Source: an uncultured Candidatus Saccharibacteria bacterium (GTDB lineage Bacteria > Patescibacteriota > Minisyncoccia > Phycocordibacterales > UBA9973). Taken from it: DNA of 62,672 bases. Position numbers and translations under genes: made by a program. Location: the NCBI GenBank assembly GCA_964632605.1, contig CAZWBZ010000004.1, positions 1 to 62,672 on the forward strand, read 5' to 3'. Below are positions 1-31,371 of the stretch, one piece after another; the first letter of the stretch is position 1, and every line of letters starts with the position of its first letter. The notes under the pieces were generated by a model that worked only from the letters and a program-made list of their open reading frames with translations, made no database searches and had not been told where the DNA came from.

Positions 1-3000
1 GGATCTGGATCTACAACTAATGCTGTTGATCTAGGTACTGCTGAAGTTGCTGGTACTCTAGATATTTCATCAAATACAAATCTTGCCGCTGGACTTGGAC
101 TTGTTCTTTCTGGAGATTCTATTGCTCTTGATGAGTCAGCTGCCTTAACAGGTGACCACACACTGTCTGCTGACACAGAAAAATTCGGAGTATCTGGTTT
201 AATCTTCGAAGGAAGTTCTGCTGATACTATAGAGACATACTTTGCTGTTACAAACCCTACTTCATCTGACAAAACAATTACATTCCCAGACGCAACTATT
301 ACTGTTAACGCTGCTGGAGATATATCAGGAACAACATTGGCATCTAATGTTGTAACATCTTCATTAACAACTGTTGGCGCTCTTAATGCTGGATCTATAA
401 CTTCTGGGTTTGGGGCTATCGATGTTGGAGCTGACTCAATTACAACAACTGGAACTATTGGTACTGCAGCTACTACTACATTTACAGGAGCAGGTGCTAC
501 ATTGTCAGCAGCATTAGCTGCAAATGGGGGAATTACATTTGATGCATCTACTGATACAGTAGGAGCATTTACCGCTGCTGGTACTATTGATATGAATGCT
601 AATATTCTTACAAATATTGGTAACTCTGGTACAGACTTTATCGCTACAACAGGAGCATTAACATTAGCTGGTGTGCTAACTGCAAACGGAGGAATATCTA
701 TTGGTAGTCAGGCATTAACTGGCACAACCGGAAACATCGACTACACAAACTTTGATGTAACAGGTTCAAACGGTAACGTAGATATCGGAGGAACAATTAC
801 AGCTGGTTCAGGAAATGAAATAATTACTCTTTCAACTGGTAAAATCGATGCTGATGCTATTGGTCTAGTTGCTGCAACTAATGGACTAACTGGTACATCT
901 TCTGCTTCTGGTCTTGCTACATATTCAGACACACTATCACTACTACAGGGTTGTACTGATGGTCAAATATTGAAATGGGTAGAATCTACTGACACATGGG
1001 ATTGTAGTGCTGATGCTGTAGGTGGCGGAGGTCTATCTGACGCAGACTACGGAGACATCGTTGTATCAGGATCAGGAACTGTATTTACTATTGATGCTGA
1101 TGTTATTGACTGGGCAGATATGGCAGATGCTACAACACTGGATACATCAACATCTATTGGTTTTGGAGCTTCTACCTTTAATCTTACATTTACAAACAAT
1201 GGATCAGGGGATGAAATACACAATCTTTCTTCTACTGGAGATTTGTTGATACAGGACAACGGTTCTACATTTGCCACATTTAGCGATGGTGGATTCGTTG
1301 GTATCGGAGATGCATCTCCTGCGGCATTGTTTACTGTCGGTAATGGAGATTTATTCCAGGTAGACTCAACCGGTTCTCTTTTAACAACTCTTTCACTTTC
1401 TGGAACAACAGCAGACGAGCTTGGTAAATTTACATTAACTAACGCTACAGCTAGTGGTAATCAATATGGACTAAACGTTATTAACGCAGATTCTACTGGT
1501 GTTACAGAGGCAGGTTTGTTTATTGATAACGCCGACACATCAGCATCATCTCTTACTGATGGAATATTAATTACATCATCAGGGGTTAACGATGGTATCA
1601 CTGACGGTATCGATGTTTCAGCTGCTAATATTACAAATGCTATAAATATTGGTGGTAATGCTATCGCTGGTACAAACTTCTCAGTATCTGCTGCTGGCGC
1701 TGCGTCTGCTTTGACTTATAACGGCCTAGCTATCACTGCTAACGGTACAAATACATTAAGTATCGCTGCTGGAAAGACATTAACTGCATCAAACTCTATA
1801 ACTCTTGCTGGTACTGACTCTACAACAATGACCTTCCCATCAACAAATGCAACTATTGCACGTACTGATGCTGCGCAAACATTCACAGGAGTTCAAACAC
1901 TTTCATCTGCACCAGTTCTAAGTACAGGCACCGTTACTGTATCTGGAAACACAATTACATTCCCATCTGTAGCATCTACTTTGGCTATACTAGGGGCAAA
2001 TACATTTACTGGAGCTCAAACATTTACATCAGCTGCTCCTCAGATTACTCTTGGAGTTAACGCTACAACTCTTGGGTCTATTAAATTATTTGGAAATACA
2101 TCAGGTGACGTAACTCTTCAAGCAACTGCTGCTGCTGGAACTGCAACAACTCAAACATTACCTGCAACAACTGGAACTTTGGTTAACCGAGTTACAACAG
2201 GAAATGGGGTATCAGCATCTAACTCTGATGGTGCGCTATCGTTTACTCTTGGCGCAATTACTCCAACTACAACTAACGGTTTAACTATTACTGCTAACGG
2301 TACAAATACATTAAGTATCGCTGCTGGAAAGACATTAACATCATCAAACACATTAACATTTGCTGGTACTGATGGATCAACACTAAATATTGGAACTGGC
2401 GGTACACTTGGAACTGCAGCGTATACAGCGTCATCTGCATATGAAGTTCCGTTAACATTCTCTACTGGTCTGACACGCAGTGTTAACACTATTACCGTTG
2501 ACCAAGCTACAAACTTCTCTCTAACAGGAAATAATGCGTTTGCTCCATCATCTACAAATGACGTTACATTTACTTTGGATTCTGATTCACTGTTTGCTAT
2601 TAATCAAGCATTCTCTTCAACAACATCTGCTGATTCTTCAACATTAACAATGACTAACGCTTCATCTTCAGGAACACAGCGTGGTCTTAATATTACAAAC
2701 GCAGATTCTACTGGTGTTACAGAAGCAGGTTTGTTTATTAACAATGCCGACACATCAGCATCATCTCTTACTGACGGAATATTGATTACATCATCAGGAG
2801 TTAACGATGGTATTACTGATGCTATTGATGTATCAGACAGCAATATTACAAATGCTATAAACGTAGGAGCAAATACAATATTAGGCACAACCGGAAACAT
2901 CGACTACACAAACTTTGATGTAACAGGTTCAAACGGTAACGTAGATATCGGAGGAACAATTACAGCTGGTTCAGGAAATGAAATAATTACTCTTTCAACT

Positions 3001-4983
3001 GGTAAAATCGATGCTGATGCTATTGGTCTAGTTGCTGCAACTAATGGACTAACTGGTACATCTTCTGCTTCTGGTCTTGCTACATATTCAGACACACTAT
3101 CACTACTACAGGGTTGTACTGATGGTCAAATATTGAAATGGGTAGAATCTACTGACACATGGGATTGTAGTGCTGATGCTGTAGGTGGCGGAGGTCTATC
3201 TGACGCAGACTACGGAGACATCGTTGTATCAGGATCAGGAACTGTATTTACTATTGATGCTGATGTTATTGACTGGGCAGATATGGCAGATGCTACAACA
3301 CTGGATACATCAACATCTATTGGTTTTGGAGCTTCTACCTTTAATCTTACATTTACAAACAATGGATCAGGGGATGAAATACACAATCTTTCTTCTACTG
3401 GAGATTTGTTGATACAGGACAACGGTTCTACATTTGCAAAGTTTGATGACGCTGGACAGTTTATGTTGGGTACTACAACTGCATCTACAGATGCCAATAT
3501 GCTTATTACTGGATCAACTTCAACAAACGGAGCAACTACTGCAATAGCTGGAATTTTTGGAGACTATACTGCAAACCCAAGTGCAGGAGGCGTACAAGTC
3601 GGTAACCGTTTTGTATTAAATAATGCACCAACATCTTCTGCTAATACTGCAGTAAACCAACTAATTCGTATTGTGGATAATACTACTTTGGCAAACACTG
3701 TACGAGGTATAGATATTACTGCGAACGGCGGTACAAATACAGCTGGTACAAATACCGGGCTACGCAGTACTGGCGCAACATTTGGGCTGCAAGGTATTAC
3801 AACAGGTCTTGCTGCTGGCGTATCTGCTCCTGCTGCTATTTATGGAGAAAGCAGTGGTACAACACTGGGTGATGTAATGCGTCTATATTCAACCACATTA
3901 ACATCTGCGCCTTCATTTGCTACTTTCTACCACAACACTTCTACATTTACAGGAACAGGACTTCTTATGGACTTGGCAGAAGGGTCAGGCTCATTTACTG
4001 GTAACTTTATAGATTTACAAAACAATAACGTTTCTAAATTTACTGTTAACGATGACGGTAGTACTGGTATTAACGATGCGACACCTGACTTCCTTCTTGA
4101 TGTTGAAGGTAACGTTGCTTCATCTTACGTTGCTTCATTCTTTAACGATGGAGACAATGCAAACCGTGGAGGTATATTGATTCAATCAGGTCTTGATGAT
4201 AATACCGCTGCAGGGCCTTCTACATTAATTGCATTCCAAGATGGAAATGGTGGAGCTGTTGGGTCTATAACATTTGGATCTTCTGCTACTGCATACAACA
4301 CTACTTCTGACCAAAGACTAAAAGAAAATGTTGTAGATACTGAATTATCTTTAGCTACACTAAATCAAATTAAAATACATGATTATACTTGGATAGCAGA
4401 CACAGAACACAAGATTGCTCATGGTGTACTAGCGCAGGAACTGTATGCAGTTTACCCAGGTGCTGTAACAAAGCCAGTAGACGAAGCAACTGCATTTTGG
4501 ATGGTAGATTATTCTAAGCTAACTCCTTTGATAGTTAAATCTATTCAAGATGTAGATGTAAAGATAAATGATATTGTTACTGAAGATACTTTGGCGGATA
4601 AGTTTAAGACAGCAGTTTCTAGTTGGCTTGGTGACGTAACAAATGGAATAAATTCTATTTATGCCAAAGTTATGAAAAGTGAGACAGTGGAGACAGATAA
4701 GCTGTGTGTCGGTAATACTTGCGTAACCGAGGATCAATTGATACAGTTACTGCAAAATAACGGAGCAGCTTCTGCTGGTTCAGCAGGTGGCAATGGGGGA
4801 GGCAGTCAAGGTGATTCAGGGTCTGACCCAGCGCCAGAGCCATCACCAAGCCCAGACGAAACCCCAGCCCCAGATCCAGAACCTACTCCTGACCCAGCCC
4901 CAGAACCAACCCCTGAAACAGCGCCAGAACCCGCACCAGAGCCAGCTCCAGCCCCTGATCCAGCTCCTAGCCCAGAAGTTTAA
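1..4983 (+). CDS. Giant tail-fibre-like surface protein with its 5' end outside the window. Carries a C-terminal peptidase S74 (intramolecular chaperone auto-processing) domain and a Pro/Glu/Asp-rich tail.
   Basis: Frame 1 is open from base 1; the track's TTG at 337 is only the first start-like codon. Gly/Thr/Ser/Ala-rich fibre repeats. SDQRLKENV...HGVLAQEL...VDYSKLTPLIV (~4306-4560) matches the S74/endosialidase-chaperone signature. PAPEP-type tail at ~4826-4980. TAA stop. Confidence 0.8.
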   Translation, partial: GSGSTTNAVDLGTAEVAGTLDISSNTNLAAGLGLVLSGDSIALDESAALTGDHTLSADTEKFGVSGLIFEGSSADTIETYFAVTNPTSSDKTITFPDATITVNAAGDISGTTLASNVVTSSLTTVGALNAGSITSGFGAIDVGADSITTTGTIGTAATTTFTGAGATLSAALAANGGITFDASTDTVGAFTAAGTIDMNANILTNIGNSGTDFIATTGALTLAGVLTANGGISIGSQALTGTTGNIDYTNFDVTGSNGNVDIGGTITAGSGNEIITLSTGKIDADAIGLVAATNGLTGTSSASGLATYSDTLSLLQGCTDGQILKWVESTDTWDCSADAVGGGGLSDADYGDIVVSGSGTVFTIDADVIDWADMADATTLDTSTSIGFGASTFNLTFTNNGSGDEIHNLSSTGDLLIQDNGSTFATFSDGGFVGIGDASPAALFTVGNGDLFQVDSTGSLLTTLSLSGTTADELGKFTLTNATASGNQYGLNVINADSTGVTEAGLFIDNADTSASSLTDGILITSSGVNDGITDGIDVSAANITNAINIGGNAIAGTNFSVSAAGAASALTYNGLAITANGTNTLSIAAGKTLTASNSITLAGTDSTTMTFPSTNATIARTDAAQTFTGVQTLSSAPVLSTGTVTVSGNTITFPSVASTLAILGANTFTGAQTFTSAAPQITLGVNATTLGSIKLFGNTSGDVTLQATAAAGTATTQTLPATTGTLVNRVTTGNGVSASNSDGALSFTLGAITPTTTNGLTITANGTNTLSIAAGKTLTSSNTLTFAGTDGSTLNIGTGGTLGTAAYTASSAYEVPLTFSTGLTRSVNTITVDQATNFSLTGNNAFAPSSTNDVTFTLDSDSLFAINQAFSSTTSADSSTLTMTNASSSGTQRGLNITNADSTGVTEAGLFINNADTSASSLTDGILITSSGVNDGITDAIDVSDSNITNAINVGANTILGTTGNIDYTNFDVTGSNGNVDIGGTITAGSGNEIITLSTGKIDADAIGLVAATNGLTGTSSASGLATYSDTLSLLQGCTDGQILKWVESTDTWDCSADAVGGGGLSDADYGDIVVSGSGTVFTIDADVIDWADMADATTLDTSTSIGFGASTFNLTFTNNGSGDEIHNLSSTGDLLIQDNGSTFAKFDDAGQFMLGTTTASTDANMLITGSTSTNGATTAIAGIFGDYTANPSAGGVQVGNRFVLNNAPTSSANTAVNQLIRIVDNTTLANTVRGIDITANGGTNTAGTNTGLRSTGATFGLQGITTGLAAGVSAPAAIYGESSGTTLGDVMRLYSTTLTSAPSFATFYHNTSTFTGTGLLMDLAEGSGSFTGNFIDLQNNNVSKFTVNDDGSTGINDATPDFLLDVEGNVASSYVASFFNDGDNANRGGILIQSGLDDNTAAGPSTLIAFQDGNGGAVGSITFGSSATAYNTTSDQRLKENVVDTELSLATLNQIKIHDYTWIADTEHKIAHGVLAQELYAVYPGAVTKPVDEATAFWMVDYSKLTPLIVKSIQDVDVKINDIVTEDTLADKFKTAVSSWLGDVTNGINSIYAKVMKSETVETDKLCVGNTCVTEDQLIQLLQNNGAASAGSAGGNGGGSQGDSGSDPAPEPSPSPDETPAPDPEPTPDPAPEPTPETAPEPAPEPAPAPDPAPSPEV
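721..1274 (+). repeat. Copy 1 of a 554-bp apparently perfect intragenic direct repeat
   Basis: By eye, base-for-base identical to 2884-3437 (offset 2163 bp = 721 codons). The identical antisense and alternate-frame ORFs in the track (741-932 = 2904-3095; 1022-1249 = 3185-3412) confirm it. Confidence 0.9.
1486..1650 (+). repeat. Diverged intragenic repeat, copy 1 (NADSTGVTEAGLFI.NADTSASSLTDGILITSSGVNDGITD module)
   Basis: About nine-tenths identical by eye to 2701-2865. The offset is 1215 bp, different from that of the perfect repeat. Confidence 0.75.
2701..2865 (+). repeat. Diverged intragenic repeat, copy 2
   Basis: Matches 1486-1650 with scattered, mostly synonymous differences. Confidence 0.75.
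2884..3437 (+). repeat. Copy 2 of the 554-bp intragenic direct repeat
   Basis: Identical to 721-1274. Identity breaks at 720/2883 and at 1275/3438. Confidence 0.9.
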
Positions 4984-5007
4984 TTAGTAGTAGTTTAAAT
5001 TAATTTT

Positions 5008-5961
5008 ATGTCCAATCATTCAAACGACATTTTAAATAAAAAGCTAAAAAGATATAAGATTCTTCTTATTACTCTTACAATAGCAACATTTATTATTGGT
5101 GCTGCTGTAAGCTTTTCTTTGCACAAAGACCATGTCCCAGAGTCAAAATACAAGCTTTTAGACCCTATGAGAGAGTTCATGTCTAAAGATTCTTACATTA
5201 TTAACATTCAAAGCTTAAGAACTTATTTACATTCAGTAGAAGAAAAATATCCAGATAATGTTTCAATATATTATGAGACAATTAACTCTGGTGCTAACAT
5301 CTCTGTTGGTAAAGAATTGCGTCTATTCCCAGCATCTCTCTCTAAGCTTGTACAGGCTATTATAATAGTTAAAAAAGTTGAAGATGGTGAACTAGATTGG
5401 GATCAGCAGCTAAAGCCTATAGAAGGAGATACTTCTTCTGATTCTGGAGAACTTTATAAAACTATTGGCAGCAGCAGTATGAGTGTTGAAGATTTGTTAA
5501 AAGAACTTTTGGTAAATTCTGACAACACTGCGCAAAATATTTTCCGTAGACAACTTAATGTTTCGGACTATATATCTTTCCAACAGGAGACTGGTCTTGA
5601 AGATTTATATAATGAAAAAGGTTTTATCTCTGCGAAAGAATATACTCGAATTCTAAGAGTGCTTTATACATCAAGTTATCTAAATCCAGAAAATTCTGAA
5701 AAAATTTTGGAATATATGTCTCAGTCAAAATTTAAAGATTATCTTTCTCAGGGTATACCGGGCGATGTAAAATTTGCCCACAAGTATGGAGAGAATAAAG
5801 AATATAATATTTTTGCTGACTCTGGAATTGTTTATGTAAAAAATCGACCATATCTCTTAACTGTAATTATAAAAGGTAAAGATAATTCTATGGAAACAAG
5901 AAGATGGGCCGTAGGGTTAATGAAAGAAATTTCAGAACAAGCCTACTTCGCTAGCCGTTAA
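5008..5961 (+). CDS. Membrane-anchored serine hydrolase, class A beta-lactamase / PBP-like
   Basis: N-terminal TM helix. SxxK (PASLSKLV), SDN (VNSDNTAQN) and K[ST]G-like (HKYGE) motifs in canonical order. ATG start, TAA stop. Confidence 0.7.
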   Translation: MSNHSNDILNKKLKRYKILLITLTIATFIIGAAVSFSLHKDHVPESKYKLLDPMREFMSKDSYIINIQSLRTYLHSVEEKYPDNVSIYYETINSGANISVGKELRLFPASLSKLVQAIIIVKKVEDGELDWDQQLKPIEGDTSSDSGELYKTIGSSSMSVEDLLKELLVNSDNTAQNIFRRQLNVSDYISFQQETGLEDLYNEKGFISAKEYTRILRVLYTSSYLNPENSEKILEYMSQSKFKDYLSQGIPGDVKFAHKYGENKEYNIFADSGIVYVKNRPYLLTVIIKGKDNSMETRRWAVGLMKEISEQAYFASR

Positions 5962-5964
5962 AAT

Positions 5965-5992
5965 AAAATCACTTGGTTAACCAAGTGATTTT
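5965..5992. terminator. Bidirectional hairpin between convergent genes
   Basis: aaaatcacttgg-ttaa-ccaagtgatttt is a perfect 12-bp stem flanked by A/T runs. It overlaps the last codons of the minus-strand gene. Confidence 0.6.
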
Positions 5993-6765
5993 ATTTTAAC
6001 TATTTTATTTTTTTGCTTGTCTATAATATTTAGTTTGATTGTCAGCATGCCGTCTTTTTCAAAAGCTTCTATTTTTTCAATATCGACTTCGTAAGGTAGG
6101 GGCAATGTCCTGGAAAATGTACCCCATTTTAATTCTGTATTTTTAGAAATAATATTTTCATTTATTTCTTTTTTAACCCGGGTACATTTTATAGTTGCAA
6201 ACTTTGTTGTGATTGATATAAAAACATCATCTATAATTGTTCCGGCAATATCTGCGTTTATTACGAGTTGCTCATTTTTTTTAAAGATATCCACAGGTAT
6301 CATTGAATCAACAGGCAAGGGGGTGTAGGAAGTCTCTTCTTCTCTTTCGTATTGAGCTAGGTGTTTTACATAATTTGTATCGCTGCTTTTCTCATCTTTT
6401 TGGGGTATGTCTATGACATCAAATGCATTTTTAAGCTTAAAATTTTGCAGCCATGCCTGGAATACAGGGGTGTCGGACGGGGAGATGTTGGATACAAGTT
6501 TTAGTATTTTACCCGAGTCCATTACGTCTGTAAGATAGAATTTGCCATCATTAGAGCGCATTTTCAGTTGGTTACAATCTGTAACCAACTCTGGATAACT
6601 ATTTTTTAAACGGTTTTTTAGAACCTTCCAGTAGTTGCGTGGGTCAGAGCTATTTGTAACCAAAGCTATGGTGTCTACCACAGAGAAGTACCATGTGCTG
6701 GAATTTTCATCCCATTGGCGGCGGATACTGCTATTTTCTATGGATTCGATGTCTAACTTCTTCAT
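5977..6765 (-). CDS. Bro-N-like DNA-binding domain fused to an Hsp20/alpha-crystallin domain
   Basis: The N-terminal half (IRRQWDENSSTWYFSVVD...QLKMRSNDGKFYLTDV...ISPSDTPVFQAWL) resembles Bro-N/DinD-type domains. The C-terminal half (PVDIFKKNEQLVINADIAG...WGTFSRTLPLPYEVDIEKIEAFEKDGMLTIKL) has the alpha-crystallin pattern. Confidence 0.65.
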   Translation of the reverse strand: MKKLDIESIENSSIRRQWDENSSTWYFSVVDTIALVTNSSDPRNYWKVLKNRLKNSYPELVTDCNQLKMRSNDGKFYLTDVMDSGKILKLVSNISPSDTPVFQAWLQNFKLKNAFDVIDIPQKDEKSSDTNYVKHLAQYEREEETSYTPLPVDSMIPVDIFKKNEQLVINADIAGTIIDDVFISITTKFATIKCTRVKKEINENIISKNTELKWGTFSRTLPLPYEVDIEKIEAFEKDGMLTIKLNIIDKQKNKIVKIKSLG

Positions 6766-6948: not shown

Positions 6949-9900
6949 ATGATTTATTTTTTGAAAGAGTTTGTTATTAATAAGAAAATTGTTACTGTGG
7001 CAAAATTTTCCATTGTTTTTTTAATCTCTGGATTTTTCTTTTTTGGAAATATAAATTCTACTTTTGCAGCCGTTCGAACATGGACTGGTACAACTAGCGG
7101 CTCTTGGTCAGTGGCAAGTAACTGGGGAGGTACCGCACCGGTAACAGGAGACGATCTTGTTTTTCCTGGCGGAGCATCTAATCTCTCTAATACAAATGAC
7201 CTGACTGAAAATACAATTTTTAACTCTATCACTCTTTCTGGTAGCGGTTATACTTTGTCGGGTAATCCAATTATTTTGGGTGCAGGTTTAGCTGGTATTA
7301 CAGACAGCGCATCATCTGGTGGTAATACAATTGCGCTTAATATTCGTCTAGATAACGTTTCTCCTATTTTTCGCAATATCGTCGTTACTAATACTGCTGA
7401 GACTTTGACCATTAGCGGAAAAATTGCTGGTGTAGGAGGTATAGCAAAAGAAGGTACTGGTACACTAGTACTGTCCGGAGGAAATACCTTTGGAGGTATT
7501 TTGAAGATTAATGCGGGTGTTGTTAATGCAAGACATTCAACAGCACTTGGGACTATTGCTACTGGTACAGAAGTTGTTGGCGGCGCAGCTCTTGAATTGC
7601 AAGGGGATATTGATATTAGTTACGAAGCTTTAACTCTTCGCGGCTATGGGGTTGATAGTAATGGGGCGCTTCGTAATATTAGCGGCAGTAATACGTATCG
7701 CGGAGTTATCTCTTTGACATCAGCCGCTGGTACAGAGATATCGTCTGATTCCGGTACTTTAACTATTGCCGGGGGTACATCAGGAAGTGCACCTTTGGTT
7801 TTTGATGGGGCAGGGAATATGGTTTTTTCTACTACGCCGATTACTGGTACTGGAATAATTACAAAAAATGGTTCCGGGACTGTGACTTTTAATTTTCCAA
7901 ATACAAACACGGGGACTTTAACCATAAATGCTGGAACTATTTTATATGGTGTAAATAACGCAATTCTTTCTAGCGCGATTACTGTAACAGGGGGTACTTT
8001 AGATATTGCTAGTTATTCCGATATGGTTGGTACAGTAACACTGGGTACTCTTGACTTAGCAGCGGGTACAATAACTGGTACATCTGGTGTATTAACCAGT
8101 TCTACTTTTACAGTTTACAATGGAACCATCAGTGCTATCATTGCTGGAGACGGAGGAACTTTAACAAAGAGTACTGCTGGTACAGTGGTGTTAACAAGAG
8201 CAAACCAATACACTGGGGCTACAACTGTTAGTTTGGGTATATTGGAAATTCAGGATAGTTATGGTCTAGGAACAATCGACGGTATTACAACTGTTACCGC
8301 TGGGGCAACTTTGCAAATTGATGGGTCAGGTCTTTCTATTCCAGAATATATTACATTTTCTGGTACAGGGCATTTGTATACCGGAGCAATTAGAAATACT
8401 ACAGGAAACAATACGTTAACTGGGCTTCTTACTCTTGGCGCGGCGGCCTTGATTGAATCTGATTCCTCTACAACTTTAACTATTGACAGTAAAGGTATCT
8501 CTGCATCAACTCTTGGTCTTACTATCGGCGGAGCTGGTAATACTACCTTTACTTCATCTGCTCCTATTTATGGAACAAGCGCCACTTTAACAAAAGTTGA
8601 TGCAGGTACTCTTACGCTGCAGGCATTTAATAACTTTACAGGTGCAACAAACTTTACATATGGAGATGTTGTCTTAAGTGGTAGTGGCGCTATGCCATTG
8701 TCTACTGCGATGACTATTAGTGCGGGTGCAAGTTTGACTTTGGACAATACCAGCGCTACTAATATTGTTGACCGTCTTGCGGACGCTTTAGCGATTACGC
8801 TGAACGGGGGAGATTTTACTTTTGTTGGGTCAAACTCTATCGCGGTTGACGAAACTGTCGGCGTCTTAACTGCCGGTATTGCCACGCAGTCGGGGAATAG
8901 CAGGATAACGGTTACCCCCGGGTCTGGTGGGTCGACGACGATGCAGTTTGCATCCCTGACCCGCACTGCCGGAGCCTCTATTTTGTTTAGGGGTACTAAT
9001 TTGGGTTCGGACCCAGGAGCCGGGGTCTCCAATATACTCTTTACAACAGCGCCGACATTAACGGGTGGAACGGGCGCTGCTAATTCTGCAACTATTCCTA
9101 TTATCCAGGGCGCTTTTGGAGATAATTCTCCAACTGGTACCGGGACAGATATGGTTACATATGGTCGTGGAAATTCTAACGGGCTACGTTTACTAAACGG
9201 GGCAGGTTTCTCTGGTGAATATACAACTAACTTTGCTACAACTAACGCAAACATAAAATTAACTACAGCTACGGCGGCAGTTACGTCTTCAATTAACTCA
9301 CTGATTCTAGATGGAACCGCAAGTATTACTAACCCTGGTAGCGCGCAAGTTATCACACTGGCGTCAGGTAATATTTTAAACCTGGTTAGTGGTAATACTG
9401 TTGCTGGCGCTAACACTACTATTGCAGCGGGCGCTGTAGAAATAAATATCTTAGCTCCTGTTGATGTTGATATTTCTGCTTTGATTACAACTACTGGCGG
9501 ACTAACAAAAAGTGGAGCAGGCACATTAACTTTTTCTACTTCAAAAACTTATACAGGTCTTACATCTATTAACGAGGGAACACTTTTAGCAGGAACAAGT
9601 AATTTCGTTTCTTCTGGTAATATTACGGTAAATAACGCAACGCTAGACATCGCCGGTTTTAGTGATACTGTTGGCGCTGTAATATTGCAAACTGGAACTA
9701 TTACTGGGACAACTGGTATCCTTACAGGAACATCTTATTCTTTTAGAGAGGGAACAGTTAGCGCTATTCTTGGCGGCGCTGTTGCGTTAACGCGCGTTGC
9801 TACAAACACCGCCACGGATAGTGTTGTCTTGTTAACAAGAGAAAATACTTATACCGGGGCTACTACTATTACCAGCGGTATTCTAAGAATTGGAGCTGCT

Positions 9901-20473: not shown

Positions 20474-20878
20474 ATGGAAGAAACAAACGCACCAAAAAAG
20501 GGAATGAGTTCTAAGATTGCAATCGTTATAGCTGTATTGGCTATAGCTGCAGCAGGGTATTTTTACTACCAGCTTTACAAAATGAAGCAAGACCCTAATG
20601 CTCAGGCAAGAAAAGAAGTTGCAGAATTAGTAACAAAAGTTTCAAAACTAGCAGTTTTGCCAGAAGGTGAAACACCAACTGTAGCTACAGTATCTGATAC
20701 TGAAGCTTTGAAAGAACAAGCTTTCTTTAAAAATGCAAAACAAGGCGATAAGGTTTTGATTTATGCAGAAGCTAAAAAAGCTTTTCTTTACAGTGTAGAA
20801 CTAAACAAAATTCTTGAAGTAGCACCATTAAATATTGGTTCTCAAAATAGTACAACTACTACAACAAAAACTAACTAG
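20474..20878 (+). CDS. Small N-terminally membrane-anchored protein, function unknown
   Basis: ATG start, one TM helix (IAIVIAVLAIAAAGYFYY), Thr-rich tail, TAG stop. Confidence 0.5.
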   Translation: MEETNAPKKGMSSKIAIVIAVLAIAAAGYFYYQLYKMKQDPNAQARKEVAELVTKVSKLAVLPEGETPTVATVSDTEALKEQAFFKNAKQGDKVLIYAEAKKAFLYSVELNKILEVAPLNIGSQNSTTTTTKTN

Positions 20879-20910
20879 TACGTTAGCGTAAGCACGCACT
20901 TAATCCCATT

Positions 20911-22266
20911 ATGAGAAGATTTGCAAAAAGTATTTTAAGTATTTCAGCATCTCTAATTGTGATGGGGTTTTTGTTTTCTTATGCTTATGCTCAGTACACT
21001 ACTAGTACAAATTTCCAAATAGAAAATCCTATTGTTGGAACAATGGAAGGAGGTATTTCTACTTCATCTAGCTTTCAATATGTTTCTAGCTCCGGACAGC
21101 TTGAAAGTGGTCAGTCTAGTTCTAGCTCTTTTATGAAGAATGCTGGATTTCTTTATTTTCCAATTGCGACAACTCCAGTAGTTGCAACCACTGCTGGTAA
21201 TGGGGCAGTGCTTGTATCATGGTCTGCATCAGTTGGAACGCTGGGTAACGTAACTAGCTATGAAGTAGGCGTCGGGACTAACGCTTTAGGACCATTTACA
21301 TATACTAATGTTAGTAACGTATTATCAAGCAATGTTACATCTTTGACTAACGGGACAACTTACTACTTCAAAGTACGTTCTTATGTTTCAGGATTAATTG
21401 TTAGTGAATCTGCAGCTGTTAGTGGTACACCTACGGCTGGTACTGGTACTACTACTGGCGGCGGCGGAGGTGGTGGAGGAGGCGGAGGCGTAACTGCTGG
21501 CGCTGTAACTGGAACAACTACAAGTGGAGATACAGGAACCGGAGACGGGCGTATAACTTTTTCTGGTAGAGCTTATCCTAATTCCAAAGTTTCTATTTTA
21601 AAAGATGGTGTTTTAGTTGTAAGTACTATTGCTGACCCCAAGGCTGATTTCTCTGTCAGTATTGGAACTCTTGCTAGCGGTAACTATAATTTCTCTGTTT
21701 ATGGACAAGACAGTAATGAAAGAAAGTCCAACTCATTTTCTTTCCCGGTATTTATATCTCAAGGTTCTACTATAAATATCGGAGGAATATTTCTTTCTCC
21801 TACAATTGATGTAGATAAGAGCGAAGTTAAACAAGGAGAAAACGTTGTTATTTTTGGCCAAAGTGTACCAAGTAGTGATATTACTATTTCTGTTCATTCA
21901 GAAAAAGAAATTTTTAATAAAGTAAAAACAGATAGTTCTGGTGTTTATTTATTAAACTTTGATACAGCTCAGCTTGAGATTGGATCCCACCTTGCAAAGT
22001 CTAAATCTGCCGTAGAGACAGAAGTTAGTCCTTTTGGTAACACTGTTGCTTTCAAGGTAGGTAATGAATCCAAAAAGAAAGAGGTAAATACTTGTTCGTC
22101 TCTTCGTGGAGACCTTAACTGTGACAAGAAAGTAAACCTGGTAGACTTTTCTATAATGGCTTATTGGTATAAGAAAAATAATCCTCCATCAAATGTGGAT
22201 TTAAATAAAGATGGAATTATTAGTTTGGTAGACTTTTCTATAATGGCATTTAATTGGACTGGATAA
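20911..22266 (+). CDS. Secreted protein with an FN3 domain, poly-Gly linker, Ig-like region and a C-terminal dockerin-type repeat pair
   Basis: Signal peptide. FN3-like SWSA...YEV...YYFKVRS. An 11-Gly run at ~21463-21495. The C-terminus GDLNCDKKVNLVDFSIMAYW...DLNKDGIISLVDFSIMAFNW is a duplicated dockerin Ca-binding motif. Confidence 0.7.
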   Translation: MRRFAKSILSISASLIVMGFLFSYAYAQYTTSTNFQIENPIVGTMEGGISTSSSFQYVSSSGQLESGQSSSSSFMKNAGFLYFPIATTPVVATTAGNGAVLVSWSASVGTLGNVTSYEVGVGTNALGPFTYTNVSNVLSSNVTSLTNGTTYYFKVRSYVSGLIVSESAAVSGTPTAGTGTTTGGGGGGGGGGGVTAGAVTGTTTSGDTGTGDGRITFSGRAYPNSKVSILKDGVLVVSTIADPKADFSVSIGTLASGNYNFSVYGQDSNERKSNSFSFPVFISQGSTINIGGIFLSPTIDVDKSEVKQGENVVIFGQSVPSSDITISVHSEKEIFNKVKTDSSGVYLLNFDTAQLEIGSHLAKSKSAVETEVSPFGNTVAFKVGNESKKKEVNTCSSLRGDLNCDKKVNLVDFSIMAYWYKKNNPPSNVDLNKDGIISLVDFSIMAFNWTG

Positions 22267-22269
22267 TAT

Positions 22270-23145
22270 ATGTATAAAAAAATAATCATAACTACAATTT
22301 TCTTTATTGCTTTTGCATTTAATGCTAATGCTTCAGAAATAAAGATATATCCAAGCAATACTAGCCCTGCTATTAACCAGGAATTTTTTGTTGATCTGGT
22401 TTTAGATACTGCAGGGGAAAGTATTAATGGTATCGAGGGTAATATTTCTTTTGACCCTAAAACACTTGTGTTTGTTAGATCAGAGAATTCTAAATCATTT
22501 ATAACCCATTGGATCGTTAGCCCAAGCGTCTCTTCTTCGGGATTAATAAAATTTTCCGGGATTGTGCCTAATGGGTTTATTGGGTTTTTTAATAGTGGTA
22601 CCGATGATACCAGTAAGGGTAATATAATGCGTCTTGTTTTTAAGCCTATTAAATCAGGTAATGCTATTATTTCTGTTTCAGATAGTTTTACTACTTTAAA
22701 TAATGGGGAAGGTACTGTGTCTACTAATATAGTTGTTAGTAGTTTAATAAATATTAGCTCTGATATAAAAGAAGAATCATATAATACTTTTGATGTTATC
22801 TCTCCACAGCTAAATGCCGAGATTGTGTCAGACCCAAATTTATATGACAATAAAAAAACTTTAGTCTTTAATGCTGTAGACAAAGAATCTGGCATCGAGG
22901 GGGTTTATTTGAAAAAAAATAAAGAATGGGTTTTTATTTCTAATCCATTTTTGTTGGAAGAGAGTGAATTGCAAGGTATACTAACTATAAAGGCTGTAGA
23001 CTTTGCAGGTAATAGCACTGTAAAAAGATTTTTGATACCAGGATATAGTAAGAATTTTCTTTATGGCTTAATTTTGGTACTAATAATTTTAACTGCTTTG
23101 TCTATCAGGTTTTTGTATAAGGTATATGCAAAAAATAAAATTTAA
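22270..23145 (+). CDS. Cohesin-like domain protein with signal peptide and C-terminal TM anchor
   Basis: IKIYPSNTSPAINQEFFVDLVLDTAGESINGIEGNISFDPKTLVFV resembles the cohesin-domain proteins annotated in CPR genomes. TM helix FLYGLILVLIILTALSI lies near the C-terminus. Confidence 0.6.
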   Translation: MYKKIIITTIFFIAFAFNANASEIKIYPSNTSPAINQEFFVDLVLDTAGESINGIEGNISFDPKTLVFVRSENSKSFITHWIVSPSVSSSGLIKFSGIVPNGFIGFFNSGTDDTSKGNIMRLVFKPIKSGNAIISVSDSFTTLNNGEGTVSTNIVVSSLINISSDIKEESYNTFDVISPQLNAEIVSDPNLYDNKKTLVFNAVDKESGIEGVYLKKNKEWVFISNPFLLEESELQGILTIKAVDFAGNSTVKRFLIPGYSKNFLYGLILVLIILTALSIRFLYKVYAKNKI

Positions 23146-24022
23146 AAAAATATTAATTTTTATTTGCGCGCTTATATTTATTTTAAGCAGTTCTTTTTCT
23201 GTTGTTAATGCTTCGACTTTAAGAATTTCGCCAGAAGCCGGTAGTTACAGTGTAGGCGATACTATTTATGTAAAGGTAATGGTGTCTAGCCCTAATGAGT
23301 CTATCAACGCTGTCTCTTCTAGGTTAAATTTTTCTCAAGAGAATCTTTCTTTAATATCTATCTCTAAATCTGGGTCTATTATTAGTATTTGGGCTCAGGA
23401 GCCTACATTTTCTAATGCTGCGGGTAGTGCGTCTTTTGAGGGGGTTACACTGGGCGGCTATACTGGCAGTGGCGCTACCGTTGTATCTTTATCTTTTAGA
23501 GCAAGAGCAGAAGGAAGAGCTTCTATCAATTTTACGTCAGGAGCTGTCTTAGCGAACGACGGAGAGGGCACTAATACTTTGACTGGTCAAAATGAGGCTA
23601 CATTTATTATTGGCCCTGCTCCTGTTACGGCTAACACAGAACCTACCAATACAGAGCCTAAAAATACTGTTCAGGAAATAAAAGAAAAAATAAAAGAAGT
23701 TGTTCAGACCAAGCCAGAAAATAAGCCAGGTGAAGTAATAAAGGAAATCCATACAATAGAATACCGTATGGTTAGGTTAGACCCAATGTATGTTTACATG
23801 ATTATTGCTTGGGTAGCGCTGCTTTTCGTTGTTCTTTATCTTTATATTAGATACAAAATCAAAGTTAAAAAAAGAATAAAAGACGTCGAGGGGATTATAG
23901 AGGAAAGCTTTGAAATTTTTAAAGAAGACGAAAAAGAAAAAAGCATAAAGACGCTAGATAGAGACTTTGATGACGCAGAAAAGGTTATAATAGATAAAAT
24001 GAAAGATATCGAAAAAATGTAA
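23126..24022 (+). CDS. Cohesin-like domain protein with signal peptide, C-terminal TM anchor and a charged cytoplasmic tail
   Basis: LRISPEAGSYSVGDTIYVKVMVSS...INAVSSRLNFSQENLSLISISKSGSIISIWAQEPTFSN. TM helix MYVYMIIAWVALLFVVLYLYI. Overlaps the upstream gene by 20 nt. Confidence 0.7.
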   Translation: MQKIKFKKILIFICALIFILSSSFSVVNASTLRISPEAGSYSVGDTIYVKVMVSSPNESINAVSSRLNFSQENLSLISISKSGSIISIWAQEPTFSNAAGSASFEGVTLGGYTGSGATVVSLSFRARAEGRASINFTSGAVLANDGEGTNTLTGQNEATFIIGPAPVTANTEPTNTEPKNTVQEIKEKIKEVVQTKPENKPGEVIKEIHTIEYRMVRLDPMYVYMIIAWVALLFVVLYLYIRYKIKVKKRIKDVEGIIEESFEIFKEDEKEKSIKTLDRDFDDAEKVIIDKMKDIEKM

Positions 24023-25308
24023 TGAATAAAAAAATATTTAAAATTTTCTCTATATTTTTTGCCTTAGTTCTAGCTACGGCGCCTTTGGCTATTTTAGCTG
24101 AAAGCTCTATAAATTTAGATGCTAAAAATCTTTTACCCAAAGTAGATATTTTTATTACACCAAGAAGTAGTACTTTTTTAGTAGGGTCTACTTTTCAGGC
24201 ACCTATTTATATTGATACAAAAGGTAACAATATAAATGCTATTAATCTTAAAATAAATTTTGACCCCAAAAAATTATCCATTGTAAATCCTTCTGGAGGG
24301 AAGTCTATTTTTGGTATTTGGGTTGAATCTCCTCAATACGATAATACTCATGGTACAGCTAGTCTTGCTGGTGTTGTCCCTGGTGGTATTGTTACTAGTT
24401 CTGGTCTTGTAATTACAATGACCTTTAAAGTTCTTTCTTCTGGCAGTACCAGAGTTACGATTAGTGATTCTTCTACCGTAAATGCTAATGATGGTCTGGG
24501 TTCAGAAATTTTAATGAATAAATCTGGGGCTACTTATACGTTGCAAAACAGAGCCCCTAACGGCGCACTTATATATTCTGATACTCATCCTTCTCAGGAT
24601 GATTGGTATAACAACAATAGTCCTTTGCTTGAATGGGGTAGCGACAATGCTAATTTGGGTTATAGTGTTCTTTTTGATAACACTGCTGGGTCTATTCCAG
24701 AGAATAAGATAACAAATAAAGAAGCTTCCCAGTTTTATGAAAATGTAAAAGACGGTATTTGGTATTTCCATGTAAAAACTTTGGCTAAGAATGTATGGGG
24801 CGCAACCAGTCATTTCAAAGTACGTATAGATACTGTGATGCCGGCAGAATTTTCTCCTACGGTAGATTCATTTAAAGATGAGCAGGGTAATAAGAAATAT
24901 ATGATATCGTTCTTTACTACAGATACGATGTCTGGTATTGACCATTACGAAGTTGGTTTAATTAATAAGAAAACCTTGGATACTGCTTCTCCTGTTTTTG
25001 TTGAAGCTCAATCTCCTTATGTTGCGCCGCAAGTTTCTGGTGATACACTGCGCGTAATTATTAGAGCTTACGATGGTGCGGGGAATGTAAGAGAATCTCA
25101 TGTTGATTTGTATCCAGGATTTACACTTGTTCAGGCTCTTAAAAAGACAGGGATATATCTTCTAATATTACTTGTAATAATCTTACTGCTTGAATTATTG
25201 CTGCATTATTTATTTGGACACCATATACTAGACCACCTAAAGAAGGCATACCAAACTTTCAAGACTGTTTCTAAAGACGAGTCAGGAGAAAATATACCAA
25301 GACCTTAA
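24022..25308 (+). CDS. Cohesin-like domain protein with an extra beta-rich domain and a C-terminal TM anchor
   Basis: FLVGSTFQAPIYIDTKGNNINAINLKINFDPKKLSIVNPSGGKSIFGIWVESPQYDN. TM helix IYLLILLVIILLLELLL. Its start overlaps the previous stop by 1 nt. Confidence 0.7.
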   Translation: MNKKIFKIFSIFFALVLATAPLAILAESSINLDAKNLLPKVDIFITPRSSTFLVGSTFQAPIYIDTKGNNINAINLKINFDPKKLSIVNPSGGKSIFGIWVESPQYDNTHGTASLAGVVPGGIVTSSGLVITMTFKVLSSGSTRVTISDSSTVNANDGLGSEILMNKSGATYTLQNRAPNGALIYSDTHPSQDDWYNNNSPLLEWGSDNANLGYSVLFDNTAGSIPENKITNKEASQFYENVKDGIWYFHVKTLAKNVWGATSHFKVRIDTVMPAEFSPTVDSFKDEQGNKKYMISFFTTDTMSGIDHYEVGLINKKTLDTASPVFVEAQSPYVAPQVSGDTLRVIIRAYDGAGNVRESHVDLYPGFTLVQALKKTGIYLLILLVIILLLELLLHYLFGHHILDHLKKAYQTFKTVSKDESGENIPRP

Positions 25309-27096: not shown

Positions 27097-27170
27097 AGGG
27101 TTTATAAATTGCTTTTATTAAGATTGCTCGTAACAGTCTAAAAGCATTGTTTTTATTAATTCGTTTCATT

Positions 27171-30100: not shown

Positions 30101-30227
30101 TTCTCCAACAGGAATTGTTTACCTAACTACAACAACAAAGATAAACAAAATAATGTGTCCAGAGCTTGATTTACAAACTCCGACTTTGATCCCAATCGAT
30201 CAAAATCCAGAAGCTCCAAAACTTTAA
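27171..30227 (+). CDS. Large secreted multidomain protein with a C-terminal peptidoglycan-binding (PG_binding_1-like) domain
   Basis: The ATG at 27171 gives a clean signal peptide (MQKITKIFGSLLVLGALVLNTVAVVSA). Contains an acidic/His tract HDDDDDEDDHHNNNN, an InlB-B-repeat-like segment (GWSGACSG...C), an Ig-like DUF5011-type segment and a CNDGIDNDGDNKID motif. The C-terminus VKKVQNFLN...GFFGPQTDSGVKKFQ is PG-binding-like. Confidence 0.75.
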   Translation: MQKITKIFGSLLVLGALVLNTVAVVSAASSISISNPGFESNPAFVGWNAGSNWTADSSAKHGGSKAARVKGSTNSSSILKQSPLSTAGYNNIKVSFWYYAGESLESSDFVKAEYTTDGTTWSTFYTINDDNDYSGGSHDDDDDEDDHHNNNNSNSGWYQAVSSTLPGVANDNPNFGIRFVANLDSSSRDYVNIDDVSVTGDQIQYKVLSVSVVGDGSVSSSPAGISCGADCSESYVKDTVVSLTATPATGFEFTGWSGACSGTAACSVTMSNAKTVTANFDAIKTTISATKIVCNNESDLPNWGSGAADITATTANDYVASHANCHLEKDWNFEWALYSAGNPGDNSLSGGSSWNVFGPTNNSGIATTVVAGQEPLWVREQMKPGYVTFSGATSDLDSEVSKKSAEIYCQSDVLNYDNFDYINQPASSSTVYCVAFNALEKPVEIVKPVISFLGFRDQADGSYNPEMPINSCGAVNTTGAIAWEWKLDSGTAPMSYKYTITSGPTAIGYTATIPNTYYNGTIPMEGTYVVEVVGTDANSVESAPISCAVTYTKTPATVDQCPNIEGTQESVPEGKHKDNEGNCVQNEVVPVCSEKTMDVVSGTDDLSGSLPAVLQSYIHGAWNTSLGGNWIWNVLGVTSPTTDEEATFAKSFTIPGTPLSATLDVLADNSYSGFVNSFTSILGADAENFGSPDSYNIPVENLVNGSNNISFTVKNWAQEEGSAESNPAGLNYKLHVIYKECTTPEVPVNTAPVITLNTDTDVLYVGGAYTEAGAVVNDTEDNLVNFPVTSISGTVDTSIAGNYTITYTYTDTGGLTATITRTVTVNPAVVIIDEDPKTQCNDGIDNDGDNKIDFTGENADSGCSSSEDNDETNPVVVVPENPGNPGGVVPTAFLGGAPAPQGRVLGASTTCGIYLEKYLRKGYKNDEESVKKVQNFLNDYFKLNIPVTGFFGPQTDSGVKKFQTKFADEILKPWKLNSPTGIVYLTTTTKINKIMCPELDLQTPTLIPIDQNPEAPKL

Positions 30228-30240
30228 TTAGTTTTCTAAA

Positions 30241-30273: not shown

Positions 30274-30292
30274 GCTGTATGTAAATATTATG

Positions 30293-30301: not shown

Positions 30302-30307
30302 ATTTTT

Positions 30308-31339: not shown

Positions 31340-31353
31340 ATAAAAAATAATTG

Positions 31354-31362: not shown

Positions 31363-31371
31363 GCGCTATAC

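Follow-up and report, generated by a model that had tools for sequence, protein, structure and literature searches.

The window analysed here, the whole 62,672-nucleotide (62.7-kb) stretch of DNA, opens inside a giant gene. Frame 1 carries a single ORF on the forward strand (1..4983, +) that is open at base 1, runs for 1,660 codons and ends in a TAA stop at 4981-4983; this is the 3′ part of a fibre gene whose 5′ end lies beyond the window, and the ORF list starts it at an internal TTG at position 337. In line with the first-pass annotation, which had described an open-ended, Gly/Thr/Ser-rich protein of at least 1,660 aa, the first 1,430 residues consist of 17% T, 13% G, 12% A and 11% S. The window protein contains six cysteines, all of which occur as three close pairs.

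A gene for a Beta-lactamase2/PBP-like serine hydrolase with an N-terminal TM helix (5008..5961, +; Pfam) starts 24 nt past the fibre stop and, because a terminator scan found no terminator in this gap, the two genes are probably co-transcribed. Their adjacency is kept at loci L034, L040, L164 (73% identity), L166 and L167 (69% identity). A 20-bp perfect hairpin terminator (5957..6000, +) lies between the beta-lactamase-like gene and a convergent gene for an Hsp20 family protein with a long N-terminal extension (5977..6765, −; Pfam and PHROG), which is syntenic in L164, L166 and L167. It is followed by a PATR-repeat giant of 4,465 aa (6949-20346; Pfam). The earlier description of a PBP-like hydrolase and then another giant surface protein (5008-5961 and 6949-20346) was thus borne out, and the antisense Hsp20 gene between them is an addition to it. 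Further downstream (20474..25308, +; Pfam) lie ORF134, which has an N-terminal TM segment, a Big_6/fn3/dockerin protein and three cohesin-type paralogues; such genes are also found next to giant fibre genes at L034, L040, L163, L178 and L179, and the neighbourhood formed by the fibre, beta-lactamase-like, Hsp20, ORF134, dockerin and cohesin genes is conserved in eight other CPR (Patescibacteria) loci. Other surface proteins of the window carry PG_binding_1 domains, and its housekeeping content includes RuvX, PilM, ThyA, SHMT, malic enzyme, EF-G, RNR and a tRNA-Arg. As had been claimed from the sequence, the fibre gene has no phage neighbours here: the scanned ORFs of the 62.7-kb window, which included all the large ones, matched no capsid, terminase, baseplate, sheath or integrase family.

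The shaft is built from repeated modules. One of these, a 554-nt in-frame segment (721..1274, +), recurs with 100% identity as a direct repeat at 2884..3437 (+), the first copy bearing Cys318/Cys335 in the motif 'QGCTDGQILKW...WDC' and the second Cys1039/Cys1056; in a homologue coverage map, the module at 721..1274 is the one most widely common to other CPR giants. A more diverged repeat (1394..1675, +) has its second copy, 77% identical, at 2609-2890, and a further 99-nt pair lies at 1719-1817 and 2274-2372 (+; 89%). All of these repeats are defined at the DNA level, as a protein self-BLAST gave no rows. The exact repeat represents either a very recent internal duplication or an assembly point needing verification. 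Comparison with homologues then delimits a conserved module of ~205 aa (aa 1150-1355; 3448..4065, +). Its matches (53-66% identity) are internal stretches of CPR giants without S74, and a profile search of the PDB found no solved homologue for it. The last segment before the predicted cleavage site (aa 1356-1435; 4066..4305, +) aligns with S74-bearing relatives and is rich in beta-strands in the first AF2 model. If cleavage occurred, the mature fibre would end in this segment (...GSSATAYNTT), in which we recognised no receptor-binding fold.

After at least 1,435 aa of shaft, the Pfam family PF13884 (Peptidase_S74) matches aa 1436-1489 over profile positions 1-57 of 58, with an E-value of 9.1e-11 and a score of 42.3 bits (gathering cut-off, 22 bits). 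The profile search proposed in the first-pass annotation therefore gave a significant match above the curated threshold, and the S74 signature that it had read from the sequence holds. The catalytic motif S1436-D-Q-R-L-K1441 (4306..4323, +) supplies the predicted scissile/nucleophile Ser and the general-base Lys; the corresponding alignment positions S66, D67, R69, L70 and K71 of SDxRLK are invariant in alignments A1 and A2 (15 and 17 sequences), SDxxxK being the motif that defines S74 (PMC10769870). The full S74 intramolecular chaperone (S74/ICA) domain (4306..4584, +) comprises the Pfam core (aa 1436-1489), a DYSKLTPL segment and a first long helix (aa 1504-1527). Because a single-sequence search of the C-terminus against the PDB was uninformative, yielding low-complexity Pro-rich matches or noise only, a family profile was needed, and this matched the solved structures 6F45 (E 7.9e-11), 8JOV and MyRF 7DC3. 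Foldseek searches with an AF2 model (mean pLDDT 81.3, core >90; both AF2 models are monomers) gave MyRF 7DC3 (probability 1.0), endoNF 3GW6 and GA-1 3GUD as the best matches, together with 326 viral S74 proteins. Thus, both the monomer model and the profile matches display the ICA fold, in which a long helix comes after a small beta/alpha core. PHROG tail-fibre families match the same region, and NCBIfam has no family for the fibre. We conclude that a bona fide S74/ICA domain, its Ser1436/Lys1441 dyad intact, lies close to the C-terminal end of the modular shaft. The domain would be expected to cleave itself at Ser1436, beyond which lie 225 aa. The fibre is likely to be a trimer by analogy, S74 being a trimerisation chaperone (PMC10769870), and three relatives with the same C-terminal cassette (L008, L010 and L012) have collagen-like G-X-Y runs, which we count in favour of this state.

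About 130 further residues, a cassette and a tail, extend beyond the chaperone. The first-pass annotation had called the ~140 aa past the S74 core unusual, and had pointed to a Cys pair and a ~50-aa PAPEP tail within them. The length is right, with 144 aa after ...IVKSIQD (aa 1516), and both Cys1569/Cys1574 and a 52-aa DPAPEP... tail are present. However, some 30-50 of these residues belong to the helices that the chaperone normally has, and the rest is unusual only in comparison with phage and Bacteroidota versions, since it is a family-wide cassette. This cassette (aa 1529-1589; 4585..4767, +) was delimited by an HMM match, is modelled with a pLDDT of 82-94, and consists of a helix, a 'WLGD-x-NGI-x-IYAK' segment, a loop, a beta-hairpin (aa 1567-1576) and a short helix (aa 1577-1588). 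The hairpin, "ELCVGxTCVTExQL", bears Cys1569 and Cys1574 within LCVGNTCVTEDQL, and C159 and C164 are nearly invariant in alignment A4. An exhaustive search of cluster representatives found the cassette in at least 395 protein clusters; it was confirmed in 147 of 150 matches checked, and S74 lies directly upstream of it in 85 of 98 long matches. Among S74-bearing ORFs, it occurs in CPR genomes only (10 ORFs) and in none of ~78 non-CPR ones, nor was it found in any of 80 viral loci, the phage and viral matches ending at the S74 core and its helices before the cassette begins. As judged from these searches, the post-S74 cassette is a conserved, previously unnamed CPR element. It is followed by a Gly/Ser/Ala-rich linker, evident from the translation (aa 1590-1608; 4768..4824, +), and by an acidic, Pro-rich (PEP-type) low-complexity tail (aa 1609-1660; 4825..4980, +; 52 aa, DPAPEP..., 44% Pro), after which there is no sortase (LPXTG) or other anchor motif. 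In relatives, the cassette is likewise followed by tails, rich in T, P, S, A, D and E, with a median length of 75 aa. The hairpin is probably stapled by a Cys1569-Cys1574 disulfide outside the cell. More speculatively, the cassette and the disordered tail might help the three C-termini to meet, and to stay soluble or wall-associated, while the fibre assembles on the outside of a cell without a periplasm.

The relatives give an indication of what the missing N-terminus may look like. In searches for the missing 5′ end, a neighbour-gene look-up gave a 2.6-kb Logan contig (run SRR12404947) that matches 3408-5986, an exact 71-nt query had no match among metagenome contigs, and a protein-level metagenome scan yielded relatives only. 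A signal peptide opens every complete relative, and in most of them a conserved head of ~130 aa comes next (L081/P0033, L163, L165, L013, L014 and P0276). This type-A head is also present in seven non-CPR S74 ORFs, mostly from Bacteroidota/FCB, and in a search with the head there was no Bdellovibrio protein among the named matches listed. PF26696, seen on a few head-domain matches, was not reproduced in Pfam, which gave a weak Big_1-like signal only. The signal peptide, head domain and true length of the window protein, whose N-terminus lies beyond the window, would accordingly follow these relatives only by homology. Complete relatives with the same C-terminus measure 1,100-3,721 aa and lie on contigs of up to 840 kb. 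Family members occur in the Saccharibacteria MAGs L002 and L005, and L002 has tandem paralogues. At NCBI, members of the family go under the name 'tail fiber domain-containing protein'.

Comparison between relatives also suggests that the parts of these fibres are exchanged. The shaft is a mosaic of modules common to other CPR giants, and at the syntenic locus made up of the fibre, the beta-lactamase-like gene and the antisense Hsp20 gene, L164 and L167 have a non-S74 tip: they share the shaft to aa ~1357 and then continue into a non-S74 'FSWTALAVKDAK' cap, which is found in 24 of 105 shaft relatives. On sequence evidence, the tip has been swapped at a syntenic locus, and shaft modules and tips have been shuffled among paralogues and orthologous loci. 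A Peptidase_G2 chaperone was considered for the non-S74 tips of L164 and L167, where Pfam finds nothing; P0004 is the sole protein with a partial PF11962 match, and we treat the homology of the L164 tip to that segment (34% over 171 aa) as a lead only.

The closest known system is the S74 subgroup of the mosaic adhesive trimer (MAT) fibres of Bdellovibrio bacteriovorus, such as Bd3182 (Caulton et al. 2024, PMC10769870); these proteins are surface-located, 13 of them end in S74, and self-cleavage of Bd3182, at S782, has been demonstrated by experiment. Both systems have chromosomal rather than phage-borne genes, long modular shafts, a C-terminal S74 with SDxxxK, and S74 and non-S74 tips on related shafts with tip swapping; both also have a signal peptide and a ~130-aa head, which on the CPR side are seen in relatives and without demonstrated homology between the heads, and both belong to organisms that live on other bacteria, which for the CPR is assumed from CPR biology. 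Furthermore, the nearest non-CPR relatives of the fibre's S74 module come from Bdellovibrionales MAGs (L004 and L006, 47-54% identity). Two motifs of the fibre, at aa 433 (VGIGDASPAALF) and aa 1355 (TGINDATPDFLL), resemble the MAT capping loop V-G-G/N-pi-x-x-P-x-x-x-L, and weak matches were seen to the Bd3182 beta-helix (Foldseek with a monomer model, E about 2) and to 8OL4 (profile, E 0.09). The CPR fibre differs in being 1.5 to >3 times longer and in having ~90 extra residues past the chaperone, Bd3182 having 141 aa after its Ser. CPR bacteria are, moreover, monoderm-like and without a periplasm, in which Bdellovibrio differs. CPR are absent from the MAT-bearing lineages in Table S3 of PMC10769870.

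More distant parallels exist. The phage ICA domains of endoNF (3GW6) and the GA-1 neck appendage (3GUD) share the profile, predicted fold, Ser/Lys spacing and C-terminal place on a fibre or spike; unlike them, the CPR gene is not viral and has relatives with an export signal, and none of the viral loci and structures examined has its Cys-hairpin cassette and tail. Eukaryotic MyRF (7DC3), the best structural match (Foldseek probability 1.00, target-normalised TM 0.53-0.59), is another non-viral S74, but with only ~20% identity and no fibre-adhesin context; its cleavage frees a transcription factor from the ER membrane. The 'tail fiber domain-containing' S74 proteins of Bacteroidota (FCB group) combine a signal peptide, type-A head, fibre and S74, often as tandem paralogues, yet end 116-137 aa past the Ser in a plain coiled coil without the Cys-hairpin cassette. 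Trimeric autotransporter adhesins are likewise long trimeric surface fibres of repetitive modules. JGI applies this label to one family member, but it is unsupported: in the fibre studied here, Pfam and NCBIfam find no YadA-type anchor domain, trimerisation would depend on S74, and the C-terminus consists of S74, cassette and disordered tail.

Taken together, these data lead us to favour, with a probability of about 0.7, the view that the ORF encodes the C-terminal 1,660 aa of a chromosomal, secreted, probably trimeric giant CPR surface fibre built like the Bdellovibrio MATs. The signal peptides of complete relatives suggest export by Sec. Three chains would then join via the C-terminal S74, which would template folding of the trimeric shaft, and Ser1436 would attack its own peptide bond, freeing the chaperone, Cys-hairpin cassette and Pro-rich tail as one C-terminal fragment of 225 aa and exposing the mature tip ...AYNTT. 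In this scheme the post-S74 cassette would take the place that a simple coiled coil has in the relatives from Bacteroidota, the N-terminal head would keep the mature fibre on the cell, and the fibre would recognise or hold the host cell of a presumably episymbiotic bacterium. The first-pass annotation had suggested a trimeric adhesin for a predatory or episymbiotic life, which has an experimental precedent in the Bdellovibrio MAT fibres (PMC10769870), and by the same analogy we regard the fibre as a candidate host-recognition device.

A different fate for the C-terminus has to be weighed against this. S74 might trimerise the fibre and stay attached, or the fibre might be a component of the envelope or coat (a surface layer, sheath or matrix fibre), with the Pro-rich tail as a permanent wall-spanning or wall-binding segment. 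Low-complexity tails of a like kind also follow non-S74 caps, from which S74 could not remove them, suggesting a role for the tail in the mature protein; the PG_binding_1 surface proteins and the nearby cohesin and dockerin genes suggest that the envelope has an ordered scaffold, and we identified no receptor-binding fold. However, neither the catalytic Ser nor the catalytic Lys varies in the family alignment, which speaks for a protease that is still active, and no LPXTG or other anchor motif follows the tail. In addition, module shuffling together with a syntenic tip swap is typical of diversifying selection for partner recognition and not of a uniform coat. We therefore consider such a permanently attached or structural fibre unlikely.

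Part of the ORF could also be an artefact of assembly, if the exact 554-nt repeat were a misjoin or artificial duplication that makes the shaft look longer than it is. Identity of 100% over 554 nt stands out amid otherwise diverged repeats, giant genes full of repeats are a common cause of broken or scrambled assemblies, many of the homologues are incomplete or sit at the ends of contigs, and L081 has frameshifts. Against this, both copies are codon-aligned, no stop interrupts the 1,660 codons of the frame, and there are complete relatives with the same C-terminus (1,100-3,721 aa, on contigs of up to 840 kb). We hold a misassembly to be distinctly improbable. We note that it would touch the length only, leaving a shaft 721 aa shorter, and not the conclusion on S74.

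That the gene is the tail fibre or spike of a prophage or its remnant, with the structural module just upstream of the window, appears very improbable. Phage tail spikes are the best-known bearers of S74, related S74 modules occur in 152 phage genomes and >550 viral contigs, NCBI applies the 'tail fiber' name, and the upstream flank of the gene lies beyond the window. However, no phage gene family was found in the 62.7 kb, and the viral matches reach no more than 49% identity and end before the cassette, which none of the 80 viral loci has. Five relatives lie in chromosomal contexts, with housekeeping genes on both sides or, as is the case for L081, directly upstream; their settings include positions after rpsL-rpsG-fusA, after a Mur ligase, UvrD helicase and pheS-pheT, beside gyrB and thrS, and beside CTP synthase, and no phage structural families were found around the relatives examined. 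The complete relatives carry Sec signal peptides, for which virion proteins assembled in the cytoplasm have no need, and the conserved gene neighbourhood is one of cellular surface proteins. These comparisons support a cellular origin of the 62.7-kb window and of the fibre locus, the absence of an upstream prophage being judged from the relatives only, and agree with the host-encoded reading given in the first-pass annotation. Scarcely any weight is due to a fibre of a tailocin or extracellular contractile injection system (eCIS) encoded elsewhere in the genome: although S74-bearing fibres are reported to occur in eCIS loci (PMC8213781), neither the window nor the relatives' examined loci contain sheath, tube or baseplate genes, the relatives' signal peptides argue for Sec export of the fibre alone, and sizes of 1,100 to 3,700 aa with tandem paralogues (L002) better fit a repertoire of surface adhesins.

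The MAT-like surface fibre thus remains our preferred reading, and one extension of it goes considerably further. The cassette and tail might form a CPR-specific assembly and tethering device at the envelope, in which S74 cleavage would release the distal tip of a fibre until then anchored at either end, leaving that tip free for host recognition; CPR would then own a large, unrecognised, MAT-like repertoire of swappable tips that sets which hosts they can attach to. We regard this full extension as doubtful. Were it true, the stapled hairpin and the wall-interacting Pro-rich, acidic tail would keep the three C-termini together while the shaft folds, and the 225-aa fragment would be more than a throw-away chaperone.

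How the ultra-small CPR/Patescibacteria episymbionts find and hold their hosts is largely unknown according to PMC12206443, and work so far on CPR host attachment has centred on type IV pili. MAT-like S74 fibres are of a known kind, already described in Bdellovibrio; their occurrence in CPR and the post-S74 cassette appear to be new. Our literature search found no report pairing Peptidase_S74 with Patescibacteria and nothing relevant on CPR together with 'tail fiber' or 'chaperone of endosialidase', and the giant-gene preprint makes no mention of S74 or tail fibres. Our analysis suggests that CPR genomes encode giant, modular fibres, exported by Sec and forming a large family, which employ the self-cleaving S74 chaperone of phages. 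The unnamed cassette, with at least 395 clusters, could enter domain databases and so improve annotations that now read 'tail fiber domain-containing protein' or 'hypothetical protein'; S74 or 'tail fiber' matches in CPR MAGs should not, in turn, be taken as prophage signals. Finally, the apparent exchange of tips at syntenic loci is the design that Bdellovibrio uses for prey recognition, and these fibres may thus serve as testable candidates for determinants of CPR host range.

The fibre gene on the forward strand runs in frame 1 from the first base of the window to base 4980 without a stop, closing with a TAA at 4981-4983, and encodes 1,660 residues, with a shaft rich in Thr (17%), Gly (13%), Ala (12%) and Ser (11%); the first-pass annotation had noted the open frame and a Gly/Thr/Ser-rich composition. 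The proposed Peptidase_S74 signature was borne out by profile searches: PF13884 matched residues 1436-1489 with 42.3 bits (E 9.1e-11), against a Pfam gathering cut-off of 22 bits, and PHROG families, one of them a long-tail-fibre family, matched the S74 region as well. A PDB search with the single window sequence was uninformative; a profile built from the 17 closest relatives matched 6F45, a phage fibre that bears S74 (E 7.9e-11), as well as 8JOV, a tail fibre, and 7DC3, the ICA domain of human MyRF. Two AF2 monomer models were built, the second on a 38-sequence alignment (mean pLDDT 81.3, S74 core >90), and for both the top Foldseek matches were MyRF ICA 7DC3 (probability 1.00) and the intramolecular chaperones of endoNF (3GW6) and GA-1 (3GUD), with 326 viral S74 proteins matching as well. 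All five defined residues of the SDxRLK motif (SDQRLK in the window protein, starting at residue 1436) are invariant in the family alignments, and SDxxxK is the catalytic motif that defines S74 (PMC10769870). Because of these profile and fold matches and the invariant motif, the domain looks catalytically competent.

Beyond the S74 Ser, the window protein continues for 225 residues; complete Bacteroidota relatives have 116-137, ending in a plain coiled coil, and Bd3182, an S74-type fibre of Bdellovibrio, has 141 (PMC10769870). The extra length consists of a conserved cassette (residues 1529-1589), which contains the expected Cys pair (Cys1569/Cys1574), and then a low-complexity tail of 52 acidic, Pro-rich residues (1609-1660). 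The better AF2 model gives the cassette a helix and a loop, then a beta-hairpin whose facing strands each carry one of the two Cys, and finally a short helix (pLDDT 82-94); neither Pfam nor NCBIfam has a model for it. Residues 1521-1592 were searched exhaustively with phmmer (E <= 0.001) against 1.84 billion cluster representatives, which identified 395 proteins. Among the best 150 of these, an independent HMM confirmed the cassette in 147, S74 lies directly upstream in 85 of the 98 proteins of at least 400 residues (median gap 11 residues), and a T/P/S/A/D/E-rich tail follows (median 75 residues). Among the S74-bearing ORFs examined, the cassette occurs in CPR (Patescibacteria) genomes only (10 ORFs), and it was found neither in ~78 non-CPR S74 ORFs nor in any of 80 viral loci. 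The extension initially singled out as unusual is therefore real, yet shared across the family rather than peculiar to this protein.

No phage, tailocin or contractile-injection families were found among the ORFs scanned, all large ones included, in the window, which begins inside the fibre gene. Its genes include those for RuvX, a tRNA-binding protein, PilM-type pilus components, ThyA, SHMT, malic enzyme, PIF1 helicase, ABC transporters, FKBP, EF-G, ribonucleotide reductase and tRNA-Arg. In relatives, fibre genes lie immediately 3' of rpsL-rpsG-fusA (locus L081), as a tandem S74 pair downstream of Mur ligase, UvrD helicase and pheS-pheT (L002), flanked by LemA/M48 peptidase genes and by a stretch including uvrD, gyrB and thrS (L082), and downstream of genes for CTP synthase and ABC transporters (L163). 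Phage and viral relatives reach at most 49% identity, in alignments limited to the S74 core and its helices. The closest relatives, 41-61% identical across the entire C-terminal module, come from CPR MAGs (Saccharibacteria, Paceibacterota, Moraniibacteriota and Uhrbacteria, plus one Nomurabacteria protein), and the nearest outside CPR from two Bdellovibrionales MAGs. Taken together, these lines of evidence make the reading of a cellular rather than viral gene, as first proposed, well supported.

Large genes in the window (1-62672) lie nearly all on the forward strand and the cumulative GC skew climbs almost unbroken, which fits a single leading-strand replichore segment. EF-G (49829-51970, forward strand) is divided into two ORFs, one of 551 residues that runs from the G domain into the beginning of domain IV and one of 144 residues that covers what is left of domains IV-V; the break is due to a sequencing error, a frameshift or a stop. 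In L081 the fibre gene downstream of fusA (14795-18555) is spread over three reading frames by apparent frameshifts, as either a pseudogene or a product of long-read sequencing errors. Both tandem paralogues of L002, from a Saccharibacteria MAG (7272-14671), carry the Cys-hairpin cassette; three to four tandem S74 ORFs are found at many loci outside CPR, most of them from Bacteroidota (e.g. L019, L020, L028, L032, L076).

The fibre stop codon is separated by 24 nt, with no terminator in between, from the ATG of a gene (5008-5961) for a TM-anchored beta-lactamase/PBP-like protein, the hydrolase noted in the first-pass annotation. A hairpin at 5957-6000 (perfect 20-bp stem and T-run) follows between this bla-like gene and a convergent, antisense hsp20 gene (5977-6765, reverse strand) and is probably a bidirectional terminator. 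The Hsp20 protein carries a ~130-aa N-terminal extension matching phrog_15286 (E 4e-28), a PHROG family of unassigned function. L164 and L167 have the fibre/bla-like/Hsp20 trio too, with bla-like proteins that share 73% (L164) and 69% (L167) identity with that of the window, and the antisense arrangement is kept in L164, L166 and L167. The L164 and L167 fibres are ~54% identical to the window protein over residues ~940-1357, beyond which they bear a non-S74 tip ending "...FSWTALAVKDAK" and then a Pro/Glu-rich tail. These alignments provide clear evidence for tip exchange between fibres at a syntenic locus.

The L164 and L167 tips share a ~170-aa domain with P0004 (residues 141-250; 34% identity, E 3e-14), for which a partial PF11962 (Peptidase_G2 IMC)/Phage_cement_2 match was obtained in P0004 only; within the fibres it may be a second chaperone-like module of phage origin.

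Further fibre-gene neighbours, namely ORF134 (N-terminal TM), a Big_6/fn3/dockerin protein and three cohesin-type paralogues (20474-25308, forward strand), are found again beside giant fibre genes of other CPR genomes, at five loci or more (L034, L040, L163, L178, L179), and may constitute a fibre-linked cohesin-dockerin system for surface assembly. In the window this neighbourhood is split in two by hsp20 and the other giant surface protein anticipated downstream, a 13.4-kb gene (6949-20346, forward strand; 4,465 aa) with 13 PATR/autotransporter-associated beta-strand repeats (PF12951, TIGR02601); relative to L034 and L040, the two genes are an insertion between the bla-like gene and ORF134. 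The region around 27147-38622 is rich in envelope and surface genes, among them forward-strand genes for proteins of 1,026 aa (27147-30227; Flg_new_2, Ig-like domain, PG_binding_1) and 1,049 aa (35473-38622; NHL repeats, He_PIG, PG_binding_1), and a CAP-domain protein (30272-31339).

Short shaft modules are 53-92% identical to parts of dozens of CPR proteins of 800-2,500 aa, most without any Pfam domain. Within older, diverged repeats of the fibre gene, bases 721-1274 recur exactly as an in-frame direct repeat at 2884-3437 (554 nt, 100% identity), either a very recent internal duplication or an assembly spot needing verification. In complete relatives a Sec-type signal peptide comes first, followed by one of three heads: type A (~130 aa, beta-rich, ...ATGVP..INFQGRL..D..GN...), a Cys-containing head (PG.TLDP.C.P.D.NC type) or a collagen-like head of G-X-Y runs. 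In P0033, the L081 fibre, which has a type-A head, the region around residue ~1,660 resembles window residues ~40-150, and P0276, of 3,721 aa and from a contig of 840 kb, has a type-A head, S74 and the cassette together; judging from these relatives, the window protein probably exceeds 3,000 aa and begins with a signal peptide and a type-A head. This head also opens S74 proteins of non-CPR genomes, mostly of the FCB group. The fibres of L008, L010 and L012 pair G-X-Y runs (N-terminal ~200 aa) with the S74-plus-cassette C-terminus, which lends independent support to a trimeric state in the family.

Bdellovibrio encodes 21 chromosomal mosaic adhesive trimer (MAT) fibres (Caulton et al. 2024, PMC10769870), each of which has a trimeric shaft behind a signal peptide and a conserved head of ~130 aa; tips are of the S74 type in 13 and of other kinds in 8, the proteins are located on the predator surface, and Bd3182 self-cleaves at S782, which an S782A mutation abolishes (PMC10769870). 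MATs are also listed in Oligoflexia, PVC, Alphaproteobacteria, Myxococcota, the FCB group and OP3, with CPR absent (Table S3, PMC10769870), and no link between S74 and CPR was found in the literature searched. The window protein, whose own head lies outside the window, resembles S74-type MATs in its S74 tip and in tip swapping on a related shaft. A search with the type-A head of its relatives gave no named Bdellovibrio protein among the hits listed, and we file the window protein as an S74 family member that appears MAT-like rather than a proven MAT.

Building on the established domain identity, intact dyad, cellular locus, modular and swapped architecture and conserved cassette, we propose that the fibre would be exported via Sec, that S74 would nucleate trimerisation, and that autocleavage before Ser1436 would free a 225-aa fragment and expose an ...AYNTT tip. 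The N-terminal head would keep the fibre on the cell for use in host recognition; more speculatively, cassette and tail might help extracellular assembly or serve as a transient tether. Since a tail of the same kind also follows non-S74 caps, it may have a role independent of the chaperone.

The finding is thus real and the first-pass reading essentially correct. The fibre is a CPR-specific variant of the cell-encoded S74 fibre, a principle already established in Bdellovibrio, rather than a new kind of system; it has a conserved, previously undescribed C-terminal cassette and shows clear evidence of tip exchange. S74 fibres of this kind are concrete candidates for a role in host recognition by CPR bacteria.
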